NCBI GenBank assembly: GCA_023898525.1
Contig: CP060227.1
Coordinates: 710,440-774,439 of the forward strand
Length of the DNA stretch: 64,000 nt
Reading direction: 5' to 3'
From: Candidatus Nomurabacteria bacterium
GTDB lineage: Bacteria > Patescibacteriota > Minisyncoccia > Phycocordibacterales > UBA918
The translations under genes were made by a program, and so were the position numbers. The notes below the pieces were generated by a model. The model made no database searches. It was given only the letters and a program-made list of their open reading frames with translations, and was not told where the DNA came from. Position 1 is the stretch's first letter; each line of letters opens with the position of its first letter. Below, in pieces: positions 15,206-57,989 of this stretch.

Positions 15206-16108
15206 ATGCTGCAAAAACTAGACTCAAAAATTATTGGTGCCTCTGTTATCGGGTTTGCCATGGTGGCCGGTGCTTTAGTAATAAATAATATGAATAGAGA
15301 GGTCGCACAAACCCCCTCAGAAGATGCCTCGCTGGCGGTTGTGAATGAAGCTCCACCTCGTAACTTCATTGAAGTTAAAGACTCGAACGATGATGGTTTG
15401 GAAGATTGGCAGGAAGAGTTTTTGTCAGCAGACAAGATTGTTATTTCCAGTACAACTGAGAATTATACTCCACCGACCACGATAACTGGACAGATGGGTA
15501 TTACTTTAATCAGAGAATTGTTGTCATCTAAAGTCTATGCACCATTTGGTTCATCTAATGATGAAATTGTTGATGACTTAGTTACAAATTTAGCCGACAA
15601 AGCCAATGATAAAATATATGATCAGCGAGATATCACTGTCACAGACGATATGTCTGATGATAGTATTCGCAACTACGGTAATGCCTTAGCAGCAGCTATT
15701 ATTGATAATGGTGTCAAAGGAGCTGAGACTGAGTCTGTGGTTCTTCAACGTATTATAAATGGTCAAGATGATAACGGTATCGAAAAACTTCAGACCTTAG
15801 CTGATATGTACGAGAAGACATTAAATGATACGTTGGCTATACTGGTGCCACGTTCTTTTGTCAAAGAGCATCTTGATCTTATTAATGTTTATAATGCCTT
15901 ATTTTATGATGTTGATGCCATGGCTAAACTTGAAGAAGATCCAGCTTTAACCTTGATACGCATGAAGCGTTACGAAGATGATGTTAAGGGGTCTTACTAT
16001 GCTTTTCAAAATGTTTATTTGGCACTAGAAAAACACGTGGAGGTCTTTAAGGAAAATGATCCGGCAATTATCTTTATACAGTTTAGTCCGGATTTTAAAC
16101 GTCAATAA
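15206..16108 (+). CDS. hypothetical membrane-anchored protein
   Basis: N-terminal TM 'IIGASVIGFAMVAGALVINNM'; acidic extracytoplasmic domain; immediately upstream of the beta-helix gene A. Confidence 0.45.
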   Translation: MLQKLDSKIIGASVIGFAMVAGALVINNMNREVAQTPSEDASLAVVNEAPPRNFIEVKDSNDDGLEDWQEEFLSADKIVISSTTENYTPPTTITGQMGITLIRELLSSKVYAPFGSSNDEIVDDLVTNLADKANDKIYDQRDITVTDDMSDDSIRNYGNALAAAIIDNGVKGAETESVVLQRIINGQDDNGIEKLQTLADMYEKTLNDTLAILVPRSFVKEHLDLINVYNALFYDVDAMAKLEEDPALTLIRMKRYEDDVKGSYYAFQNVYLALEKHVEVFKENDPAIIFIQFSPDFKRQ

Positions 16109-16118
16109 ACTTGATATT

Positions 16119-17500
16119 ATGCCCACCCTCCACCACCTCCTCCAAACCACCCTCACCTTCCTCTTCACCCTCACCCTCTCTTTTGTCAGTGTATACATCC
16201 CTCAACCATACCACCAAGTCAACCACGCCGAAGCCGGAGTCGCCACCTTCAGTGGTCAGTTGATGGGTCTGGCCGAACAAGCCGTCAGTGCCGCCGCCAA
16301 CGTGATGTCAGCGGCTATTGAGTCGGTCATCAGATTCAAGGAACTAGTCTGGGACCCCTTAGCCTGGAGTGTGGCCAAGGGCATGATCGCTGTCATGACT
16401 GCCAGTGTGGTCAGGTGGATCAACTCCGGTTTCCAAGGTTCCCCCGCCTTTGTCCAAGACCTGGAATACTACCTCTCCCGGGTTGGAGACCGAGTCTTTG
16501 GTGAATTCGTCAACGAACTCGGTATCGCCCCCTTTGTCTGCCGCCCCTTTAGACTTGACCTCCAAATCGCCCTCAACATCGGCTACCAAAGACACTACCG
16601 CGCCGGTTACCCAATTGGCGCCACCTACTGCAGCCTCGAAGGTGCTCTTGCCAACATCGACAACTTTGTTAACGGTAGCTTCAATGACGGTGGTTGGGAC
16701 ACTTGGTACACTGTCACCACCAGACCCAACACCTATACCCCCTATGGTAACTTCCTCTCCGTCAGTGGTGAAGCGGCTCTCAGAATCAACAACCAACAAG
16801 TTAACGCCACCCGTTTCCTAAACTTCGGTGACGGTTTCATGTCCAAAGCCATCTGTTCCCAAATCCCCATCATCACCGGCGGAGCGATTACCAGAGAACG
16901 TTGTGCTGTCTCTACTCCGGGACAAGTCATCAACCAAACTCTTAACCACCACCTTGGGGCCGGTCTCGACAGCCTCATCGCCGCTGATGAGATCGGTGAG
17001 ATCATTGGTGCTCTGGTGGGCCAACTGGCACAAAAGTCCCTGGAAGGCGCGGCCGGACTCCTTGGTCTCTCTGGTGGTACCGGCTACACCGACCCTAGCT
17101 ACGGTACCTCCTACCTGGATGCTGCTATTACCGAACAAACAGCCAGTTCTGCCGAAGCGGCTATCATCACCAACGCCAGCTCCACCAACGCCTACAACCA
17201 AGCGGCCAACCAAGCCGAACAACAAGGACAACAAAGAGCTGATAATGCACAGGCGGGAGCGGATAGTACGACGAATACTGGTAATACCGAACAACTATTG
17301 CAACAACTGATAGACATACTGGGAAGCGGAACTGTGATCACCCCAACTGACCCTAACACCACCACCCCACCAATTGGTCTTAGTGGTCCAATTGGACCGC
17401 AACCAATCACTGCTACTCCACTTTCCAGTGGTACCATCTTCGCTGCCCCTAATGGTTCCGGTACCGCTTGCTCTGAGGCGATGCCGTGTGATATTTGGAC
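16119..17500 (+). repeat. 1382-nt segment nucleotide-identical to 55368..56749 (N-terminal module of the beta-helix genes)
   Basis: Hand alignment over the leading bases shows identity beginning at the ATG (constant offset 39249). Identity ends after 'gatatttggac' (17501 g vs 56750 t). The embedded six-frame sub-ORFs (e.g. 16359..16799 = 55608..56048) translate identically. Confidence 0.85.
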
Positions 17501-18470
17501 GGCTATTGGTAAGGCAGGGGCGGGAGATGTGGTATTCCTAAGAGGGGGAACTTATCAGGTAACACAAAACATTCCTTTCTATAAACAAGGTACAGCCTCT
17601 AATCCAATAGTATTTGAAAGTTATCTGGGAGAGAAAGCGGTGTTTGACGGTAGTCAGCATGCGAAGGGGACTGGTGTACTTATACGAGTAAACGGAAAAT
17701 ACAATGTTCTTAGAAATATCGAAATTAGAAACATGCCAAGAGAAGGTATCTTTATAGAAGGTACAGACAATATATTGGATGGTGTATATGTTCATGGTAG
17801 CACCCTAGATGGCATCAAAGTCTTTAGTCCATACGCCAACTATCCGTACGGACAATACGGCTCTCGCAACACCATCCGCAACTGTATTGTCCACGACAGT
17901 TCTGATGCTGGATTAACCAGCGCCGGATTTGCTGACGGTGGACAGGCTGATGGTGTGTCAATAGCCTCTGGTGACAGTAACCGAGTGGAACATTGTTTGG
18001 TCTACCACAACTCTGATGACGGTATAGATGCTTGGCGTTCTACCAACACCTACTTTGGCTATAATATTGTTAGCTCTAACGGTATTGCTAGTGGTGACGG
18101 GAATGGTATTAAGGCCGGAAGTTCACAAGGTCAAAGCTTCAATACTCTGGCTGAACGTAATATTGTCTACTCTAACCGGGCTACTGCTCTGGACTATAAT
18201 GGAGGTACTAATGCTACTTTCCGCTATAATACCACTTGGCAAAATGGTCAAGCCCACACCTTCGGCGACGCTATCAATTCTGCTACTGCCAACATCTCCT
18301 CTAACGAACCTCTTGGCTTCATCTCCTCTGGCGCTCAATCTAAAGTCACCAACAACTCCTGGCAACGCTCTGGCACCGTCCAGTTCATCAGCACCAACCC
18401 AAGCTCACCAGACTTCTTAAGACCAACCGTGGGTGGAGGTTTTGAGGACATTGGAGCGTATGCGCAGTAG
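16119..18470 (+). CDS. large surface protein A: signal/TM anchor, conserved GC-rich N-terminal module, and right-handed parallel beta-helix C-terminal cassette
   Basis: Start set at 'MPTLHH' (ATG 16119) to match the paralogue at 55368. PbH1-type repeats ('NCIVHDSSDAGL', 'HNSDDGIDAWRSTNTYFGYNIV'). The cassette is bounded by '...GTIFAAPNGSGTACSEAMPCDIWTA' and the C-terminal tail 'NNSWQRSGTVQFISTNPSSPDFLRPTVGGGFEDIGAYAQ'. Confidence 0.75.
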   Translation: MPTLHHLLQTTLTFLFTLTLSFVSVYIPQPYHQVNHAEAGVATFSGQLMGLAEQAVSAAANVMSAAIESVIRFKELVWDPLAWSVAKGMIAVMTASVVRWINSGFQGSPAFVQDLEYYLSRVGDRVFGEFVNELGIAPFVCRPFRLDLQIALNIGYQRHYRAGYPIGATYCSLEGALANIDNFVNGSFNDGGWDTWYTVTTRPNTYTPYGNFLSVSGEAALRINNQQVNATRFLNFGDGFMSKAICSQIPIITGGAITRERCAVSTPGQVINQTLNHHLGAGLDSLIAADEIGEIIGALVGQLAQKSLEGAAGLLGLSGGTGYTDPSYGTSYLDAAITEQTASSAEAAIITNASSTNAYNQAANQAEQQGQQRADNAQAGADSTTNTGNTEQLLQQLIDILGSGTVITPTDPNTTTPPIGLSGPIGPQPITATPLSSGTIFAAPNGSGTACSEAMPCDIWTAIGKAGAGDVVFLRGGTYQVTQNIPFYKQGTASNPIVFESYLGEKAVFDGSQHAKGTGVLIRVNGKYNVLRNIEIRNMPREGIFIEGTDNILDGVYVHGSTLDGIKVFSPYANYPYGQYGSRNTIRNCIVHDSSDAGLTSAGFADGGQADGVSIASGDSNRVEHCLVYHNSDDGIDAWRSTNTYFGYNIVSSNGIASGDGNGIKAGSSQGQSFNTLAERNIVYSNRATALDYNGGTNATFRYNTTWQNGQAHTFGDAINSATANISSNEPLGFISSGAQSKVTNNSWQRSGTVQFISTNPSSPDFLRPTVGGGFEDIGAYAQ

Positions 18471-50619: not shown

Positions 50620-51573
50620 TCAAAATATCAATAGACCGTTATCAAAATCTCTAAAGAAATTACAGACTCCAATAATAGCCATTGTCATTACTATCAAATC
50701 CAAGGATGAATCTAGGTTATGTCCAGTATAACAACCAGTATTAGCTTGATCGATAAGTAATTGGGCGCCGCCACTGGCGTTTGGTACTTTGATGTGAAAT
50801 AATTTGCCATACAATCGTATTTCTAGACCGCTTGCTATCGGATCAAATTTACCAACTTTGTTGTTGGCTGCTTCCCAGGATGGTTCTGTCAGTAGACAGC
50901 GTCTCTTAAACAGATCTTTTTCTAGTTTCCCGAAAACAATAGTTTTTGCAATGCTATTAAGCAAATTAATCTTAGTGAGAATCGCTGGAGATAATTCTAG
51001 ATTCAGATCCGGTTTAATATTATAGCTGCTGTAGCCAGAACCAGTAAATGTTTTCAGGAACATCTGCTGCTGGATGCTGTTTAACGCAAATTGGTTTTCT
51101 GATCCACCTGCTTGAGTTCTAAATGTTTCCGCAATACTTTGTGTCAGTATTGACAATGCTTCAGCCGCGCGATTGAGTTTCTGAAAATCAGGATAAACTG
51201 TTGCTGGAGCATGTGGTCTGTCGGGACCCAGAAAAGGAAGATAGATTGTAAATGAAACCGTATCACCACCAAAAGTCACCTCAACGTCATCGATACGTTT
51301 TAAAGTAAGTATCTGTGTTAGATCCGGGTTATTTAGGTCTAATAAAGCATTATACATAGACATGCTGGTAATCAATTTTATTCCTTCTTCCGTCACCTTA
51401 AACTTTGTAAATTCTGGACTACCATTAGCATTAGATAATATTGAATATGTCATCGACATCTCCTTTGTAAAAAGGGTTTTATGAAAATTGCTTCTGAGCG
51501 CTAGATTACCATAAAATTGTCTGGTGTAAATAAGAAAACCACCCGATGATGCTTGGGCGGTTTTGTGTTGCAT
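50620..51573 (-). CDS. hypothetical protein
   Basis: 317-aa ORF on the minus strand; no recognisable family; first of a 3-gene minus-strand cluster. Confidence 0.4.
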   Translation of the reverse strand: MQHKTAQASSGGFLIYTRQFYGNLALRSNFHKTLFTKEMSMTYSILSNANGSPEFTKFKVTEEGIKLITSMSMYNALLDLNNPDLTQILTLKRIDDVEVTFGGDTVSFTIYLPFLGPDRPHAPATVYPDFQKLNRAAEALSILTQSIAETFRTQAGGSENQFALNSIQQQMFLKTFTGSGYSSYNIKPDLNLELSPAILTKINLLNSIAKTIVFGKLEKDLFKRRCLLTEPSWEAANNKVGKFDPIASGLEIRLYGKLFHIKVPNASGGAQLLIDQANTGCYTGHNLDSSLDLIVMTMAIIGVCNFFRDFDNGLLIF

Positions 51574-51588
51574 TGTAGTCTTTAGGAT

Positions 51589-52251
51589 TTATTTTTTTTC
51601 AATGTAAGTCTGTTTTAAAAACTTATCCCAAAATAGACTTAAAGCAACAAGTAAGATTACTTGTTGCAGAGTTGAGGTCAATCCAAAACTGCTGTAGATA
51701 TTGCCGTTGGCCGATAGTGTATATGGCTGCAGATATGTTTCGCTTTCCGGATTGGGTATATTTACATTTAGTTGACCATTAACGATCTGAATTAAAAAAC
51801 CGTTATTTCCTGAGTTGGACCGCTGTAATATATCATACCGAGCAGATGAATCATTTACCGTGAGTCTGGTGTGGTGTCGTAGCGCCTCTTTTTCACAATG
51901 ACTAAGTAATTTTTTACCCCCTGGTGAAACGGCTCCACTAATAATTTCCATTGCTGGGTTTGTAAAGTTGACGATAAGATCCAGACTAACCCGATTGAGA
52001 TTTCTAGTGGCCACCACCTCTACAAACATTAATTGTAGATCAGAACTTAACGCTAACTCTCTTATTTTATCTTGATCAGTAGTGTTTAATTCTACTATTA
52101 GATTGTTTAGGTTGCGCGTTAGGTTAGCTAACATTGATACTACCTCACCCAGGGCAAAGTTCGGGTATTGTTGATTACCTTGTTTTGCTTGACTAAAGTA
52201 AGGGAGTTTGATTCCAATTTCTGCCTGGTTATTCCCGTATAAGGTATCCAT
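51589..52251 (-). CDS. hypothetical protein with C-terminal TM
   Basis: 220-aa ORF; C-terminal hydrophobic 'LQQVILLVALSLFW'; overlaps the upstream ORF by 112 nt in another frame. Confidence 0.4.
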   Translation of the reverse strand: MDTLYGNNQAEIGIKLPYFSQAKQGNQQYPNFALGEVVSMLANLTRNLNNLIVELNTTDQDKIRELALSSDLQLMFVEVVATRNLNRVSLDLIVNFTNPAMEIISGAVSPGGKKLLSHCEKEALRHHTRLTVNDSSARYDILQRSNSGNNGFLIQIVNGQLNVNIPNPESETYLQPYTLSANGNIYSSFGLTSTLQQVILLVALSLFWDKFLKQTYIEKK

Positions 52252-52537: not shown

Positions 52538-53143
52538 ATGAAAAAATTACCACATCAAGAGAGGACTTTTATTATTTTAAAACCAGATACGGTTCAGCGT
52601 AGTTTGGTTGGTGAAGCGATCAAGAGAATCGAGCGAACCGGTCTTAAGTGTACAGCTATGAAGATGTTTGTGCCGGACGAGGAAAGACTGCTTAAGCACT
52701 ACAACAAATCTGACGAGTGGTTTTTGAAAAAGGGAACTAACGTCGTGGAAGACCTTAAAGCTCAGGGTTTGCCGGTTGATAAGGAGCCGATTGAGTACGG
52801 CCGTGACATTATCCGTACTATCGTAACCTACATGACAGCCGGTCCGGTCGTGGCGATGGTTTGGGAGGGTAATCAGGCAGTCAAGGTCGTGACTAAGATT
52901 GTTGGTACCACTGAGCCTGCTACTTCAGATGTTGGAACTATCCGTGGTGATTATACAATTGACTCCTATGGGCACGCTTCATTTGAGAATCGCGCCGTGC
53001 GAAACTTGGTGCACTGTTCTGATGCGGTGGAGGAAGCCGAACGAGAAATTGCGATTTGGTTTACTGAGGGTGAGGTTATGCAATATGCTACTGCTCAAGA
53101 AAGGATTATGTATGATGTAAACTTGGATGGTAAGGATGAGTAA
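52538..53143 (+). CDS. ndk: nucleoside diphosphate kinase (long form)
   Basis: 'ERTFIILKPDTVQRSLVGEAIKRIERTGL', 'GTIRGDY', and 'NLVHCSDAVEEAEREIAIWF' (active-site His). Confidence 0.75.
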   Translation: MKKLPHQERTFIILKPDTVQRSLVGEAIKRIERTGLKCTAMKMFVPDEERLLKHYNKSDEWFLKKGTNVVEDLKAQGLPVDKEPIEYGRDIIRTIVTYMTAGPVVAMVWEGNQAVKVVTKIVGTTEPATSDVGTIRGDYTIDSYGHASFENRAVRNLVHCSDAVEEAEREIAIWFTEGEVMQYATAQERIMYDVNLDGKDE

Positions 53144-53163: not shown

Positions 53164-53206
53164 AATCAAAGACCGGAAAGCGAAGCTTTCCGGTCTTTGA
53201 TTTTTA
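53164..53206 (+). terminator. intrinsic terminator after ndk
   Basis: Hairpin AATCAAAGACCGGAAAGC-gaa-GCTTTCCGGTCTTTGATTTTT. Confidence 0.7.
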
Positions 53207-53246
53207 TAAATTGCCTAAAAATACGTTCGGGTGTAAAATTACTGAA

Positions 53247-53438
53247 GGAACCACAAATAACGTATGTTCCGATTAAACATACACGCAGGGTTGCCAGCAG
53301 TCGCAAGTGATAATGAGAACTTTATGGAGAATTTCATAGAGATTTCAGACCTCATTTGGAAATGGTACCCACCTGGATTTTCCAGGAGCATGCGTAAGTG
53401 GTTCCCGTGAAAAAACACCTCGATGAGAGGTGTTTTTT
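53247..53438 (+). ncRNA. candidate structured RNA (riboswitch-like 5' leader or sRNA) ending in an intrinsic terminator
   Basis: Long-range closing stem GGAACCAC..ACGTATG (53247-53266) pairs with CATGCGT..GTGGTTCC (53389-53405). There is an internal hairpin CCTGGA-tttt-TCCAGG. Terminator AAAAACACCTC-gatgag-GAGGTGTTTTTT (53410-53438) lies 28 nt before the next ATG. Class unassigned. Confidence 0.3.
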
Positions 53439-53465
53439 CACGCTCATTTAGAGTATTATAAAGTT

Positions 53466-53852
53466 ATGATTAAGAATATTTCTTTGTTGACAGTGGTTGT
53501 GTTGTGGTTAGTATTTGCGACGGCTCATGCTTTCTTCAAAACAACAGAGCTATATTGGTTTTATCTATGGCTTGATATCCCGATGCATTTGGCTGGTGGT
53601 TTTTTAGTGGTGATGACTTGGTTTGTTTTGCAAAGGAGGTTTATAGCGGGTGAAAAAATTTTTAGTCAAAAATTTTTTCACCCGCTCATCATCCTCGCCA
53701 TCATGATGGTTGCTTGGGAAATATATAAATATATGATTGGCGATATTGTTATGGACAATTATGTATCCGATACCATCCTTGATCTGATAATGGGTACGGT
53801 AGGTGGACTAATTGCTTTTAAGTTATTCTTATCACGTACAATAGACAAATAA
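53466..53852 (+). CDS. small hypothetical membrane protein (4 TM)
   Basis: Start trimmed to 'MIKNISLLTVVVLWLVFA'; hydrophobic helices throughout; no CrcB or SMR motifs. Confidence 0.45.
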   Translation: MIKNISLLTVVVLWLVFATAHAFFKTTELYWFYLWLDIPMHLAGGFLVVMTWFVLQRRFIAGEKIFSQKFFHPLIILAIMMVAWEIYKYMIGDIVMDNYVSDTILDLIMGTVGGLIAFKLFLSRTIDK

Positions 53853-53855
53853 TTT

Positions 53856-55217
53856 ATGCAATCAACTTTAGGATTTTACGGAGGAGTAGGGTCGGTGACA
53901 GGGGCAAATTTTATGTTAGACACCGGTAAGGTGGCTATCTTGGTTGATTGTGGTTTGGTACAAGGGGACTGTTTTGCAATGGAGAAAAACGCTGAGCCTT
54001 TTGTTTATGATCCAGCTCATATTGATGTGCTACTGGTCACTCATGCGCACGCTGATCATATTGGTCGTATTCCTAAGCTGGTACGCGATGGTTTTAAGGG
54101 AGTTATTTATAGTACCGAGCCGACCAGAGAGTTAACTGGTGTGATGTTGCAAGACGCTCTTAAGGTAATGGAGTATGAGGCTAAGCGTTATGGGGTAGAG
54201 GTTTTGTATGATAAACACAACATCGACTCAGCGCTTGGACTGTGGCAAAGTGTTGACTACGAGGAAGTGATTGGCTTATCAGACAATGTTGAGGCCTGGT
54301 TCACCGACGCGGGTCATATACTAGGATCTGCTATGGTACATCTAAAACGAGGTGATAAGAAAATAGTCTTTACAGGTGATATCGGCAACATACCCCAACC
54401 GCTCCTTAAGGCGCCAGTTATCCCTAAGGATTATGATTATCTGGTAATGGAAAGTGTGTATGGTGATCGTTTGCACGAAGAGGTGGAAGAAAGAACTGCC
54501 TTACTTCGACATCATATAGAAGAGACACAAAAGAGAAAGGGAACACTGATCATCCCGGCTTTCTCCTTAGAACGTACGCAAGGTATGCTCTATGAAATTA
54601 ACAACATGGTGGAAGCGGGAGAGGTTGATCCGCTGCCTGTCTTTCTTGATTCACCACTCGCCATTACAGTTACTGATATTTATCGTGGGTTTACTCGGTA
54701 CTTAAGACCAGAGATACAAGACCAAATAAGAAACGGCGATGACATATTCGATTTTTCCGGTCTTAAGTTTACCGAAACTAAGAAAGATTCTGAATCAATT
54801 TCGCGGGTTGACGATCCAAAGATTATTATTGCCGGTTCTGGTATGAGTCATGGTGGCCGGATTTTAAAACACGAAAGAGACTATCTTGGTGATCCAAAGA
54901 CAACTCTGCTTTTGGTTGGTTATCAGGCAGTGGGTAGTATGGGTAGGCTGCTCCAAGACGGAGCTAAGACTATAAATATAGACGGTAGCAAGGTGAAGGT
55001 GCGGGCTCAGGTGGCACAAATCCGTGGTTATTCCGGACACGCTGACCGAGACCAGCTTTTGGAGTTGGTGGCCCATGGTGGTGACAAAGCCAAACAAATA
55101 TTTGTCACAATGGGGGAAGAGCGTTCGTCACTGTTTTTGACTCAGCGCTTACATGATTATTTAGGCTTAAATGCCGTAGCGCCGGATCTGAATCAGGAAG
55201 TAGTGATAGAGTTTTAA
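53856..55217 (+). CDS. MBL-fold beta-CASP family RNA-metabolising hydrolase (RNase J/CPSF-like)
   Basis: 'VLLVTHAHADHIGRIPKL' (HxHxDH) and 'GYSGHADRDQLLELV' (beta-CASP C-terminal motif). Confidence 0.75.
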   Translation: MQSTLGFYGGVGSVTGANFMLDTGKVAILVDCGLVQGDCFAMEKNAEPFVYDPAHIDVLLVTHAHADHIGRIPKLVRDGFKGVIYSTEPTRELTGVMLQDALKVMEYEAKRYGVEVLYDKHNIDSALGLWQSVDYEEVIGLSDNVEAWFTDAGHILGSAMVHLKRGDKKIVFTGDIGNIPQPLLKAPVIPKDYDYLVMESVYGDRLHEEVEERTALLRHHIEETQKRKGTLIIPAFSLERTQGMLYEINNMVEAGEVDPLPVFLDSPLAITVTDIYRGFTRYLRPEIQDQIRNGDDIFDFSGLKFTETKKDSESISRVDDPKIIIAGSGMSHGGRILKHERDYLGDPKTTLLLVGYQAVGSMGRLLQDGAKTINIDGSKVKVRAQVAQIRGYSGHADRDQLLELVAHGGDKAKQIFVTMGEERSSLFLTQRLHDYLGLNAVAPDLNQEVVIEF

Positions 55218-55367: not shown

Positions 55368-57989
55368 ATGCCCACCCTCCACCACCTCCTCCAAACCACC
55401 CTCACCTTCCTCTTCACCCTCACCCTCTCTTTTGTCAGTGTATACATCCCTCAACCATACCACCAAGTCAACCACGCCGAAGCCGGAGTCGCCACCTTCA
55501 GTGGTCAGTTGATGGGTCTGGCCGAACAAGCCGTCAGTGCCGCCGCCAACGTGATGTCAGCGGCTATTGAGTCGGTCATCAGATTCAAGGAACTAGTCTG
55601 GGACCCCTTAGCCTGGAGTGTGGCCAAGGGCATGATCGCTGTCATGACTGCCAGTGTGGTCAGGTGGATCAACTCCGGTTTCCAAGGTTCCCCCGCCTTT
55701 GTCCAAGACCTGGAATACTACCTCTCCCGGGTTGGAGACCGAGTCTTTGGTGAATTCGTCAACGAACTCGGTATCGCCCCCTTTGTCTGCCGCCCCTTTA
55801 GACTTGACCTCCAAATCGCCCTCAACATCGGCTACCAAAGACACTACCGCGCCGGTTACCCAATTGGCGCCACCTACTGCAGCCTCGAAGGTGCTCTTGC
55901 CAACATCGACAACTTTGTTAACGGTAGCTTCAATGACGGTGGTTGGGACACTTGGTACACTGTCACCACCAGACCCAACACCTATACCCCCTATGGTAAC
56001 TTCCTCTCCGTCAGTGGTGAAGCGGCTCTCAGAATCAACAACCAACAAGTTAACGCCACCCGTTTCCTAAACTTCGGTGACGGTTTCATGTCCAAAGCCA
56101 TCTGTTCCCAAATCCCCATCATCACCGGCGGAGCGATTACCAGAGAACGTTGTGCTGTCTCTACTCCGGGACAAGTCATCAACCAAACTCTTAACCACCA
56201 CCTTGGGGCCGGTCTCGACAGCCTCATCGCCGCTGATGAGATCGGTGAGATCATTGGTGCTCTGGTGGGCCAACTGGCACAAAAGTCCCTGGAAGGCGCG
56301 GCCGGACTCCTTGGTCTCTCTGGTGGTACCGGCTACACCGACCCTAGCTACGGTACCTCCTACCTGGATGCTGCTATTACCGAACAAACAGCCAGTTCTG
56401 CCGAAGCGGCTATCATCACCAACGCCAGCTCCACCAACGCCTACAACCAAGCGGCCAACCAAGCCGAACAACAAGGACAACAAAGAGCTGATAATGCACA
56501 GGCGGGAGCGGATAGTACGACGAATACTGGTAATACCGAACAACTATTGCAACAACTGATAGACATACTGGGAAGCGGAACTGTGATCACCCCAACTGAC
56601 CCTAACACCACCACCCCACCAATTGGTCTTAGTGGTCCAATTGGACCGCAACCAATCACTGCTACTCCACTTTCCAGTGGTACCATCTTCGCTGCCCCTA
56701 ATGGTTCCGGTACCGCTTGCTCTGAGGCGATGCCGTGTGATATTTGGACTGCAGCGGCTAAGGCCAAGGCGGGAGATGTGGTATTCCTTAGAGGGGGAAC
56801 TTACAATATTACAAGGCGAATAACTATGGATAACCAAGGTACCGCCTCCAACCCGGTGATCTATGAGAGTTACCCAGGGGAGAAGGCGGTGTTTGATGGT
56901 AGTCAGCATGTAAAGGGGACTAATGTTTGGTTAAGAATCTCTGGCAAGTTTATCAAGTTGCGTAACTTAGAAGTTAAAAACATGCCAAGAGAAGGTGTGT
57001 TTATAAGTGGTACTGATAATATAGTCGAAGGTTTAAATGTTCATGGAAGTGGTCTGAGCGGTATACACATATTCAGTCCCTATGAAGCGTACCCTTATGG
57101 TCAATATGGCTCTAGAAACACAATTATTAACAATACTGTTTATGACAGTTCAGATGTAGGTCTTGCTTCTGGCGGTATTGGTAATGGAGGAAACGCAGAT
57201 GGCATAAAGATTTCAAGTGGAGGTGATAACAAAATAAAGAACAATCTAGTATACAAGAACTCCGATGATGGTATTGACGCTTGGCGATCGACCAATACTT
57301 ATATTGGTTACAATATTGTTCATTCAAGTGGTCTTGGAGATGGTGATGGTAACGGTATTAAGGCTGGAGGTAAGTCTCCTAGTTCAGGTACATATGTTGA
57401 ACGAAATATATCATACTCAAATAAGTCAAGTGGTATTGATCACAACACAGGTGTTAATTTAACTTTTATCAATAATACTACCTGGAATAATCCTGTTGGT
57501 TATAGAATAGGTTCTGATACAAAAGCTATTAATAACATCGCAGCAGAAACCAGTATATTTGGTGTCGGTACCCAAACCAACAACTCCTGGCAACACTCCG
57601 ATACTCTTCAGTTCATCAGTACCGACCCTAACTCACCTGACTTCTTAAGACCGACAGTTGGAGGAGGATTTGAGGATATTGGAGTGTATGGTACCGGTGG
57701 TGGTACTACTCAGACACCTACTCCACCAACCCCAACCCCTACTCCAATTGGTCTTGGTGGCCCAATCGGCCCACAACCAGTCACTGCTACCGCTCTAGCT
57801 AAAGGTACTATCTTTGCTGCCCCTAACGGCTCCGGTACCGCTTGCTCAGACGCTAATCCTTGCGACATCTGGACAGCAGTTGGCAAAGCGGGTGCAGGGG
57901 ATGTGGTGTTCTTGAGAGGGGGAACATACAGGTTAAATGGTATTTTAGACATATCAAAGCACGGTACCGCATCAAACCAAACCCGATAA
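55368..57989 (+). CDS. large surface protein B: same N-terminal module as gene A plus a divergent beta-helix cassette B1; terminated by a frameshift at the start of a second cassette
   Basis: The first 1382 nt are identical to 16119..17500. Cassette B1 'DIWTAAAKAKAGDVVFLRGGTYNITRR...NNSWQHSDTLQFISTDPNSPDFLRPTVGGGFEDIGVYG' is followed by linker 'TGGGTTQTPTPPTPTPTPIGLGGPIGPQP' and the start of cassette B2. The stop at 57987 results from an AAACC-AAACC tandem duplication. Confidence 0.7.
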   Translation: MPTLHHLLQTTLTFLFTLTLSFVSVYIPQPYHQVNHAEAGVATFSGQLMGLAEQAVSAAANVMSAAIESVIRFKELVWDPLAWSVAKGMIAVMTASVVRWINSGFQGSPAFVQDLEYYLSRVGDRVFGEFVNELGIAPFVCRPFRLDLQIALNIGYQRHYRAGYPIGATYCSLEGALANIDNFVNGSFNDGGWDTWYTVTTRPNTYTPYGNFLSVSGEAALRINNQQVNATRFLNFGDGFMSKAICSQIPIITGGAITRERCAVSTPGQVINQTLNHHLGAGLDSLIAADEIGEIIGALVGQLAQKSLEGAAGLLGLSGGTGYTDPSYGTSYLDAAITEQTASSAEAAIITNASSTNAYNQAANQAEQQGQQRADNAQAGADSTTNTGNTEQLLQQLIDILGSGTVITPTDPNTTTPPIGLSGPIGPQPITATPLSSGTIFAAPNGSGTACSEAMPCDIWTAAAKAKAGDVVFLRGGTYNITRRITMDNQGTASNPVIYESYPGEKAVFDGSQHVKGTNVWLRISGKFIKLRNLEVKNMPREGVFISGTDNIVEGLNVHGSGLSGIHIFSPYEAYPYGQYGSRNTIINNTVYDSSDVGLASGGIGNGGNADGIKISSGGDNKIKNNLVYKNSDDGIDAWRSTNTYIGYNIVHSSGLGDGDGNGIKAGGKSPSSGTYVERNISYSNKSSGIDHNTGVNLTFINNTTWNNPVGYRIGSDTKAINNIAAETSIFGVGTQTNNSWQHSDTLQFISTDPNSPDFLRPTVGGGFEDIGVYGTGGGTTQTPTPPTPTPTPIGLGGPIGPQPVTATALAKGTIFAAPNGSGTACSDANPCDIWTAVGKAGAGDVVFLRGGTYRLNGILDISKHGTASNQTR

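Follow-up and report, generated by a model that had tools for sequence, protein, structure and literature searches.

A probable divergent 6S RNA gene downstream of ndk in Patescibacteria

We describe a structured RNA element encoded between ndk and the gene of a predicted 128-amino-acid (aa) membrane protein, on the forward strand of a 64-kb window (the whole stretch of DNA analysed, 64,000 nucleotides of contig CP060227.1, assembly GCA_023898525.1) from Candidatus Nomurabacteria bacterium. The element is probably ssrS. That is, positions 53246/7–53405 (+), plus a terminator reaching 53441, appear to encode the 6S RNA of a Patescibacteria (Paceibacteria/Kaiserbacteria-like) bacterium, in a divergent and so far unannotated form. 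We favour this reading because an architecture backed by covariation and a conserved core sequence both match the 6S consensus of Rfam. The element has a structure that is kept in relatives, transcription signals of its own and a core sequence shared with 6S RNAs. An earlier sequence-only reading of the same stretch had offered two options: a riboswitch for the small, transporter-like gene downstream, or a 6S-like small RNA (sRNA). The comparative evidence favours the second and goes against the first.

A conserved RNA structure downstream of ndk

The predicted fold of the forward strand reaches -90.8 kcal/mol, compared to -51.7 +/- 4.8 kcal/mol for 200 dinucleotide shuffles (z = -8.1; none of the shuffles was as stable), and the reverse strand gives z = -4.9. 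This is the element of about 160 nucleotides (nt) that the sequence-only reading had picked out. Its core measures 159 nt, or about 195 nt with the terminator, and relatives range from 122 to 177 nt.

To place the element in its lineage, we used the NDK protein to retrieve 80 loci from bacterial assemblies, one genome per species. All 80 come from metagenome-assembled genomes of Patescibacteria, also called the Candidate Phyla Radiation (CPR), mostly labelled Paceibacteria, Kaiserbacteria or Parcubacteria. When these were searched by nhmmer with the window element as query, 42 of the 80 proved to have a same-strand copy downstream of ndk, at approximately 70–80% nucleotide identity. These 42 sequences make up alignments A1 and A2, and a covariance model, R1, was built from A2.

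RNAalifold proposes 43 base pairs for the 42 sequences, 27 of which show compensatory double changes. Standard pairs fill 97.7% of the alignment cells, versus 88.8% in shuffles and 33–48% when the partners are slid by one to three columns, while both sides of a pair have changed in 183 cells versus about 52 in shuffles. On none of the covariation measures did any of 500 shuffles reach the observed value. The sequence-only reading had tied its call of a structured RNA to conservation of the structure in relatives, where it is indeed kept; chance secondary structure is excluded by this covariation. Several G-U pairs are conserved and R1 scores 141.9 bits on the forward strand versus 18.5 on the reverse, so the forward strand is the RNA strand. 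With this model the 64-kb window yields a single copy, and the 6-kb loci one each.

The consensus is a rod consisting of a closing helix P1 (8 base pairs, bp), an internal loop, a second helix P2 (10–11 bp), an open 5' strand of about 17 nt, an apical arm and a 3' hairpin. In the window, P1 joins GGAACCAC (53247–53254) to GUGGUUCC (53398–53405) and forms the outer closing stem. This segment (helices 1 and 2 of the alignment) is paired in 98.8–100% of the cells, with compensatory changes in five of its eight pairs. P2 joins ACGUAUGUUCC (53260–53270) to GGAGCAUGCGU (53385–53395) over 11 bp; as helix 3 it is paired in 99.5% of the cells and has double changes in 5/10 pairs. Together, P1 and P2 make a closing stem of 19 bp split by an internal loop. 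The 15-bp long-range stem of the sequence-only reading (53247–53266 with 53389–53405) is real as to its pairing, its ranges covering P1 and the outer 7 bp of P2, but it is two helices rather than one.

Above P2, the 5' strand of a central bubble, GAUUAAACAUACACGCA (17 nt, 53271–53287), is unpaired in the consensus structure. Its GAUUAAA is conserved and the remainder variable; the distal ACGCA (53283–53287) is complementary to UGCGU (53391–53395) in the 3' strand of P2. The apical arm (53288–53370) comprises P3, an internal loop, P3b and the P4 hairpin (53314–53347, with conserved AUGAGAAC and GAUUUCAGAC). P3 pairs an invariant GGG (53288–53290) with an invariant CCC (53368–53370), both in A2 and in an alignment of distant members (A4, see below). 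Across the arm (helices 4–6), 97–98% of the cells are paired and 14 of 21 pairs show double changes. The 3' strand of the bubble (53371–53386) begins with an invariant A53371 and continues as the small hairpin P5 (helix 7; double changes in three of four pairs), in which CCUGG (53372–53376) pairs with CCAGG (53382–53386) and which runs straight into the 3' strand of P2. Two residues are thus shared: G53385 and G53386 can pair in P2 (with C53270 and C53269) or in the hairpin (with C53373 and C53372). The motif CCCACCU, spanning the end of the arm and the start of the bubble strand, is invariant or nearly so across the family.

The same stretch holds a 48-codon open reading frame (ORF; 53264–53410, +) and a 59-codon ORF on the reverse strand, which raises the question of a small protein gene. 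Both ORFs exist, and the ATG with the first five codons of the forward one (MFRLN) is conserved, but this ATG lies inside the P2 strand ACGUAUGUUCC. Moreover, 25 of the 42 homologs have a stop in this frame within the first 20 codons, the insertions and deletions are not multiples of three, substitutions preserve base pairs and not codons, and no Pfam family matches. We rejected the 48-codon ORF as a coding gene on account of its unconserved frame, and the probability we leave to a small protein is negligible.

Beyond the 42 close relatives, R1 matches more distant ndk loci, with P1 and P2 compensated: L025 (74 bits), L057 (32.7 bits, E = 5e-5), L056 (29.7 bits) and L070 (17.9 bits). Covariance-model and hidden Markov model (HMM) searches added eight loci in all, namely these four and L051, L078, L079 and L080, the last four contributed by an HMM of distant sequences. 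A motif scan combined with folding added another eight (L047, L049, L054, L055, L063, L069, L074 and L075), all with the same layout: their own -10 box, P1, P2, an open 5' strand, AGGGAG..., ...CACCCACCU with a hairpin, and a terminator. This brings the species loci with the RNA to at least 58 out of 80, and the order ndk, RNA, (membrane protein), beta-CASP ribonuclease is maintained as NDK identity falls from 92% to about 60%.

The distant members were aligned with MAFFT (A4, 11 sequences). In this alignment P1 and P2 are misaligned and RNAalifold recovered only P3. An HMM based on A4 had no match to the window; the structure-aware R1 alone connects the window clade with L057, L056 and L070. 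A further alignment, A3, contains reverse-strand matches and was left unused. In two other loci (L077, 3636–3758, and L067, 4699–4825), synteny, promoter, terminator and the CCCACC-hairpin are kept, and P2 meets the GGG with almost no open 5' bubble. These may represent a closed variant, or their boundaries may have been misjudged; having no clear open 5' bubble, they are left as uncertain members.

A predicted transcription unit of its own

In the window, a promoter scan places the predicted promoter of the RNA at 53211–53239 (+): a -35-like TTGCCT (53211–53216), a 17-nt spacer and a -10 TAAAAT (53234–53239) just upstream of P1, with the predicted transcription start at about 53246/53247. Each of the 46 homologs examined has a -10 box (mostly TGnTATACT-like; TAAAAT in the window) 6–8 nt before P1, and the terminator of the preceding gene is often just upstream of it.

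At the other end, a G+C hairpin followed by a U run begins 1–4 nt after P1 in 42/42 aligned homologs. The window copy of this intrinsic terminator, identified from the fold, occupies 53407–53441 (+), close to the 53410–53438 of the sequence-only reading. It reads GUGAAAAAACACCUC-GAUGA-GAGGUGUUUUUUCAC, that is, a G+C core (53416–53421 with 53427–53432) around a 5-nt loop, in a stem extended by an A run and a U run; from these two runs it looks bidirectional. The strong ndk terminator that had been called at 53164–53206 is likewise present (53164–53207, +), as an 18-bp hairpin (53164–53202, AAUCAAAGACCGGAAAGC-GAA-GCUUUCCGGUCUUUGAUU) and a U run. A simple consensus scan called no terminator in the ndk–RNA region. 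It missed both because the extended stem takes up most of the U run, and a rule that expects the T run after the stem then fails.

These signals bear on whether the element is only the 3' untranslated region (UTR) of ndk. The RNA does directly follow ndk in most loci. Yet the ndk terminator precedes it, a conserved -10 box stands before it, and it is kept where genes have been inserted after ndk (L002, L004, L019, L026 and L034). The sequence-only reading had named an ndk 3' UTR with no start of its own as what would undo its proposal, and the -10 box in front of P1 speaks for such a start. Taken together, an explanation by the ndk 3' UTR alone, or by chance folding, is highly improbable.

A riboswitch or other cis-regulatory leader would be an aptamer and terminator controlling the membrane-protein gene and the beta-CASP gene behind it. 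The arrangement invites this idea: a structured domain is followed by a terminator only 25 nt upstream of an ORF (from 53441 to the ATG at 53466 of the 128-codon frame), and the membrane-protein gene is downstream in most loci. However, the terminator stem is self-contained, and inspection by eye of the window sequence, with no computational test, found no complementarity to P1 that could serve as an anti-terminator. The RNA is also retained where its supposed target is not. About 10 of the 42 close loci lack the 128-aa gene or have it truncated or displaced, and the same holds for about 12 loci overall (L009, L017, L018, L041, L043, L044, L010, L003, L019, L025, L047 and L049). Even where both are present, the RNA is far better conserved (70–80% nucleotide identity across loci, versus 26–44% amino-acid identity for the protein). 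No riboswitch family of Rfam matched the window RNA, even at E <= 10, and the conserved nucleotides are those of 6S RNA. We consider a riboswitch very unlikely. On its sequence signals the element is a predicted stand-alone sRNA gene and not a riboswitch, given its own -10 box and terminator, the separate ndk terminator, and a membrane-protein gene that is poorly conserved and sometimes missing.

Resemblance to 6S RNA

6S RNAs are defined by a closing stem, a central bubble and an apical stem, and in Bacillus subtilis 6S-1 a hairpin in the 3' strand of the bubble is preformed (PMC8876501). The window RNA has this layout, with its closing stem (P1 and P2), 17-nt open 5' bubble strand, apical arm and small 3'-bubble hairpin, and the distant members share the architecture.

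The likeness extends to the nucleotides at the junctions. The family-invariant residues (CC followed by GA, then GGG, CCCACCUGG and GG) coincide with the positions that the Rfam 6S consensus conserves most strongly. Read from 5' to 3' by segment, the consensus of RF00013 is uGAgCC, gAaaauuuuuauaaua, GGGagccc...gggcaCCC, ACCUggaAcagCa and GGuUCa, and its window counterpart is UGUUCC, GAUUAAACAUACACGCA, GGGUUGCC...GGUACCC, ACCUGGAUUUUCCA and GGAGCA. Conservation is complete or at least 90% (A1, A2 and A4) for the GGG, the CCCACCU and the flanking CC and GG, all of which sit at the same junctions as in RF00013. The GA after CC is the consensus in the window clade. Distant CPR members even share the unpaired A opposite A that directly follows GGG/CCC in RF00013, a position where the window clade has a covarying C-G or U-A pair instead.

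In searches with Rfam 15 at gathering score (46.4 bits for RF00013), the whole window has no match, and no rRNA, tRNA, tmRNA or other Rfam family was found anywhere in it; the sequence-only reading had likewise seen no fluoride, TPP, SRP, tmRNA or RNase P signature by eye. Five short stretches were searched at E <= 10. Two distant relatives match RF00013 on the correct strand and across the bubble: L055, for which it is the best match (14.8 bits, E = 0.3, model positions 33–154), and L074, for which it is the only one (13.2 bits, E = 0.65, model positions 37–150). Other matches at this level (miRNA, MicC, RNAI, PhrS, snoRNA and others) were discarded, as they fit terminator hairpins only or are noise.

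Several points weigh against a 6S identity. At E <= 10, neither the window RNA nor L069 or L057 matches RF00013, and the scores of L074 and L055 are far below the gathering threshold and not significant alone. R1 and an HMM based on A2 had no match to E. coli ssrS, so that direct homology to the E. coli RNA lacks statistical support. Three things join the window clade to the relatives matching 6S: the R1 matches to L057 and L056 (E between about 1e-5 and 1e-4), a common synteny and common motifs. The 159-nt core is shorter than a typical 6S RNA (about 185–200 nt). Finally, the copy counts cover the 64-kb window and the 6-kb loci, and a second, canonical 6S RNA may lie elsewhere in these genomes.

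In this context, the element could instead be a structured sRNA specific to the lineage, unrelated to 6S RNA or only convergently similar to it. Its partner might then be a different protein, such as the beta-CASP ribonuclease encoded nearby, or the core of RNA polymerase, as with Ms1. The Rfam results just given speak for it, as does the deep conservation of the order ndk, RNA, membrane protein, beta-CASP; Ms1 itself is a precedent, being a 6S-like rod with another target (PMC9130861). On the other hand, the invariant nucleotides of the CPR family occupy the same structural positions as the most conserved ones of RF00013 (CC-GA, GGG, the A-A mismatch, CCCACCUgg and GG), and so long a match is improbable as a coincidence at precisely this junction. 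Two features are, moreover, specific to the 6S mechanism: the preformed hairpin in the 3' bubble strand and the complementarity for bubble collapse. We consider a lineage-specific origin rather unlikely, and a divergent 6S RNA remains the reading that we favour.

A predicted release mechanism

By homology with characterised 6S RNAs, the element would bind RNA polymerase, template a product RNA and refold. Its central bubble would mimic an open promoter and occupy the active-site cleft of the holoenzyme with the primary sigma factor, thereby sequestering the enzyme. When nucleoside triphosphate (NTP) levels rise, the polymerase would copy the 5' bubble strand and the P2 strand into a short product RNA. 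In E. coli 6S RNA, product-RNA synthesis starts at U44 (PMC9670815); by analogy, the start here is predicted opposite U53273 of CCGAU, giving 5'-AUCGGAACAUACGU. Because of the same analogy, the 5' strand of P2, the helix downstream of the bubble, is predicted to serve as template. Copying would free the 3' strand of P2, which could then pair again in two ways: GG53385-6 with CC53372-3, and UGCGU (53391–53395) with ACGCA (53283–53287). The bubble would collapse and the polymerase be released.

Folding computations are compatible with this sequence of events. When the template (53260–53273) is masked in a constrained fold, the 3'-bubble hairpin lengthens through pairing of CC53372-3 with GG53385-6, the same G residues that close P2 in the free RNA, and the collapse helix between ACGCA (53283–53287) and UGCGU (53391–53395) forms. 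In the 42 homologs, the complementarity of the variable distal 5' bubble to the P2 3' strand is maintained in differing registers, with a mean of -5.2 kcal/mol versus -2.25 kcal/mol for shuffles. Individually, the complementarity is at or below the 5% tail in 21 of the 42 sequences; the statistic treats related sequences as independent, so its pooled p-value makes the effect look stronger than it is, and this counts against the 6S reading along with the points above. Competition between the release helices and the downstream helix is thus a computational potential.

The genomic neighbourhood

The RNA sits within a short, conserved series of genes, its neighbours lying outside it. Upstream is ndk (52538–53143, +), encoding a nucleoside diphosphate kinase of 201 aa (Pfam NDK, E = 1.6e-39; NCBIfam NDK also matches), the conserved neighbour that served as anchor for the 80 loci. 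A typical NDK has about 140 aa. The Pfam and NCBIfam models match the window protein in two stretches, which implies an insertion of about 50 residues (around residues 45–90), conserved across these CPR genomes.

The usual downstream neighbour is the gene of the 128-aa predicted membrane protein (53466–53852, +), for which no Pfam or NCBIfam family matched. The protein is predicted to be multi-pass and evolves fast (26–44% identity), and it has been lost or truncated in several species. Its mRNA may be leaderless or nearly so, as suggested by a -10-like TATTAT (53454–53459) 6 nt before the ATG and by the lack of an evident Shine-Dalgarno sequence.

Next comes a gene for a 453-aa ribonuclease of the metallo-beta-lactamase/beta-CASP/RMMBL type (CPSF-like; 53856–55217, +; Pfam Beta-Casp, Lactamase_B and RMMBL). 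It follows the RNA in nearly every locus, usually after the membrane-protein gene, with protein identity down to 42%. Its best NCBIfam matches both fall short of the cut-off; they are Cas14 of type VII CRISPR (393 bits, cut-off 800) and aCPSF1 of archaea.

Further afield, two adjacent ORFs (317 and 220 aa) without a Pfam match lie upstream of ndk at 50620–52251 (-); most related loci have in their place a forward-strand ORF of about 256 aa. Downstream, 55368–57989 (+) holds an 873-aa ORF with low-complexity linkers and a G+C content of 0.47, above its surroundings. It contains a block of about 60 residues twice, '...PIGPQP.TAT.L..GTIFAAPNGSGTACS.A.PCDIWTA..KA.AGDVVFLRGGTY', an internal duplication. 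The G+C peak of the window (0.507 versus about 0.40) is at 16001–18000, where the GC skew is negative.

Implications

We regard this RNA as a new, unannotated member of a well-known class, and not as a new class of riboswitch. 6S RNA is regarded as nearly universal in bacteria. Our literature search returned no paper relevantly combining '6S RNA' with Patescibacteria, CPR, Saccharibacteria or Parcubacteria, and at its gathering threshold Rfam 15 leaves 6S undetected in this CPR window and the related loci tested. Alignment A2 and model R1 could serve the annotation of ssrS in a large uncultivated lineage. By analogy with known 6S RNAs, the finding would indicate that bacteria with genomes below 1 Mb retain this global brake on RNA polymerase. 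In addition, a compact natural variant (about 125–160 nt) with release features of the B. subtilis type would be useful for mechanistic comparison.

The neighbourhood of ndk, 6S RNA and a beta-CASP gene is worth a look because product-RNA release senses NTPs and because an enzyme of the RNase J family processes B. subtilis 6S RNA; this processing depends on RNase J1 (PMC10578484). One could imagine a 6S-derived RNA acting within a conserved four-gene module of ndk, the RNA, the small membrane protein and the CPSF-like ribonuclease, a speculation to which we assign a low probability. In one version, NTP supply by NDK and RNA turnover by the beta-CASP enzyme would be wired directly to polymerase release; if true, ultra-small CPR bacteria would have a minimal growth-state switch peculiar to them. 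In another version, the RNA would have been repurposed as a partner of the nuclease, not of the polymerase.

Relation to known 6S RNAs and Ms1

Compared to the Rfam family RF00013, the CPR RNA shares the rod of closing stem, central bubble and apical stem, an open 5' bubble strand of 16–17 nt, and the junction nucleotides CC-GA, GGG(A)..., ...(A)CCC-ACCUgg and GG. Like members of that family, it is a small RNA with a predicted strong promoter of its own. It differs in scoring below threshold (no match for the window, 13–15 bits for two relatives, gathering score 46.4), in its shorter core (about 125–160 nt), and in an intrinsic terminator that abuts the closing stem. In the window clade, a Watson-Crick pair replaces the A-A mismatch and there is a clade-specific hairpin (AUGAGAAC...GAUUUCAGAC).

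The E. coli ssrS sequence used for comparison was verified at 100% identity and is annotated as 6S RNA. The two RNAs have in common CCGAU at the product-RNA start (U44 in E. coli), the succession of apical stem, A and CCU...hairpin on the 3' bubble strand, and a G common to the downstream helix and the release hairpin; co-location with downstream ORFs is a possible further likeness (cf. ssrS-fau). In contrast, E. coli has GAAUGUG/CACAUUC for GGG.../...CCC, the 3' side of its bubble stays mostly open as long as the RNA is free, and the molecule has 184 nt, is matured by processing and is not matched by R1.

Ms1 of Actinobacteria, about 300 nt long, offers a different parallel, as it too is a rod-shaped, 6S-like sRNA that the 6S model misses. 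It differs in binding the core of RNA polymerase and in being restricted to Actinobacteria (PMC9130861).

In its release features, the CPR RNA resembles B. subtilis 6S-1 (BsrA) and the 6S RNA of Aquifex aeolicus. There are differences: by eye, with no search made, no sequence similarity is seen outside the core, and the product-RNA start is only predicted for the CPR RNA. Common to all three are a small 3'-bubble hairpin preformed in the free RNA, as predicted for the CPR member, and the ability in principle of the distal 5' bubble to pair with the P2 3' strand in a 'central bubble collapse helix' (PMC8876501).

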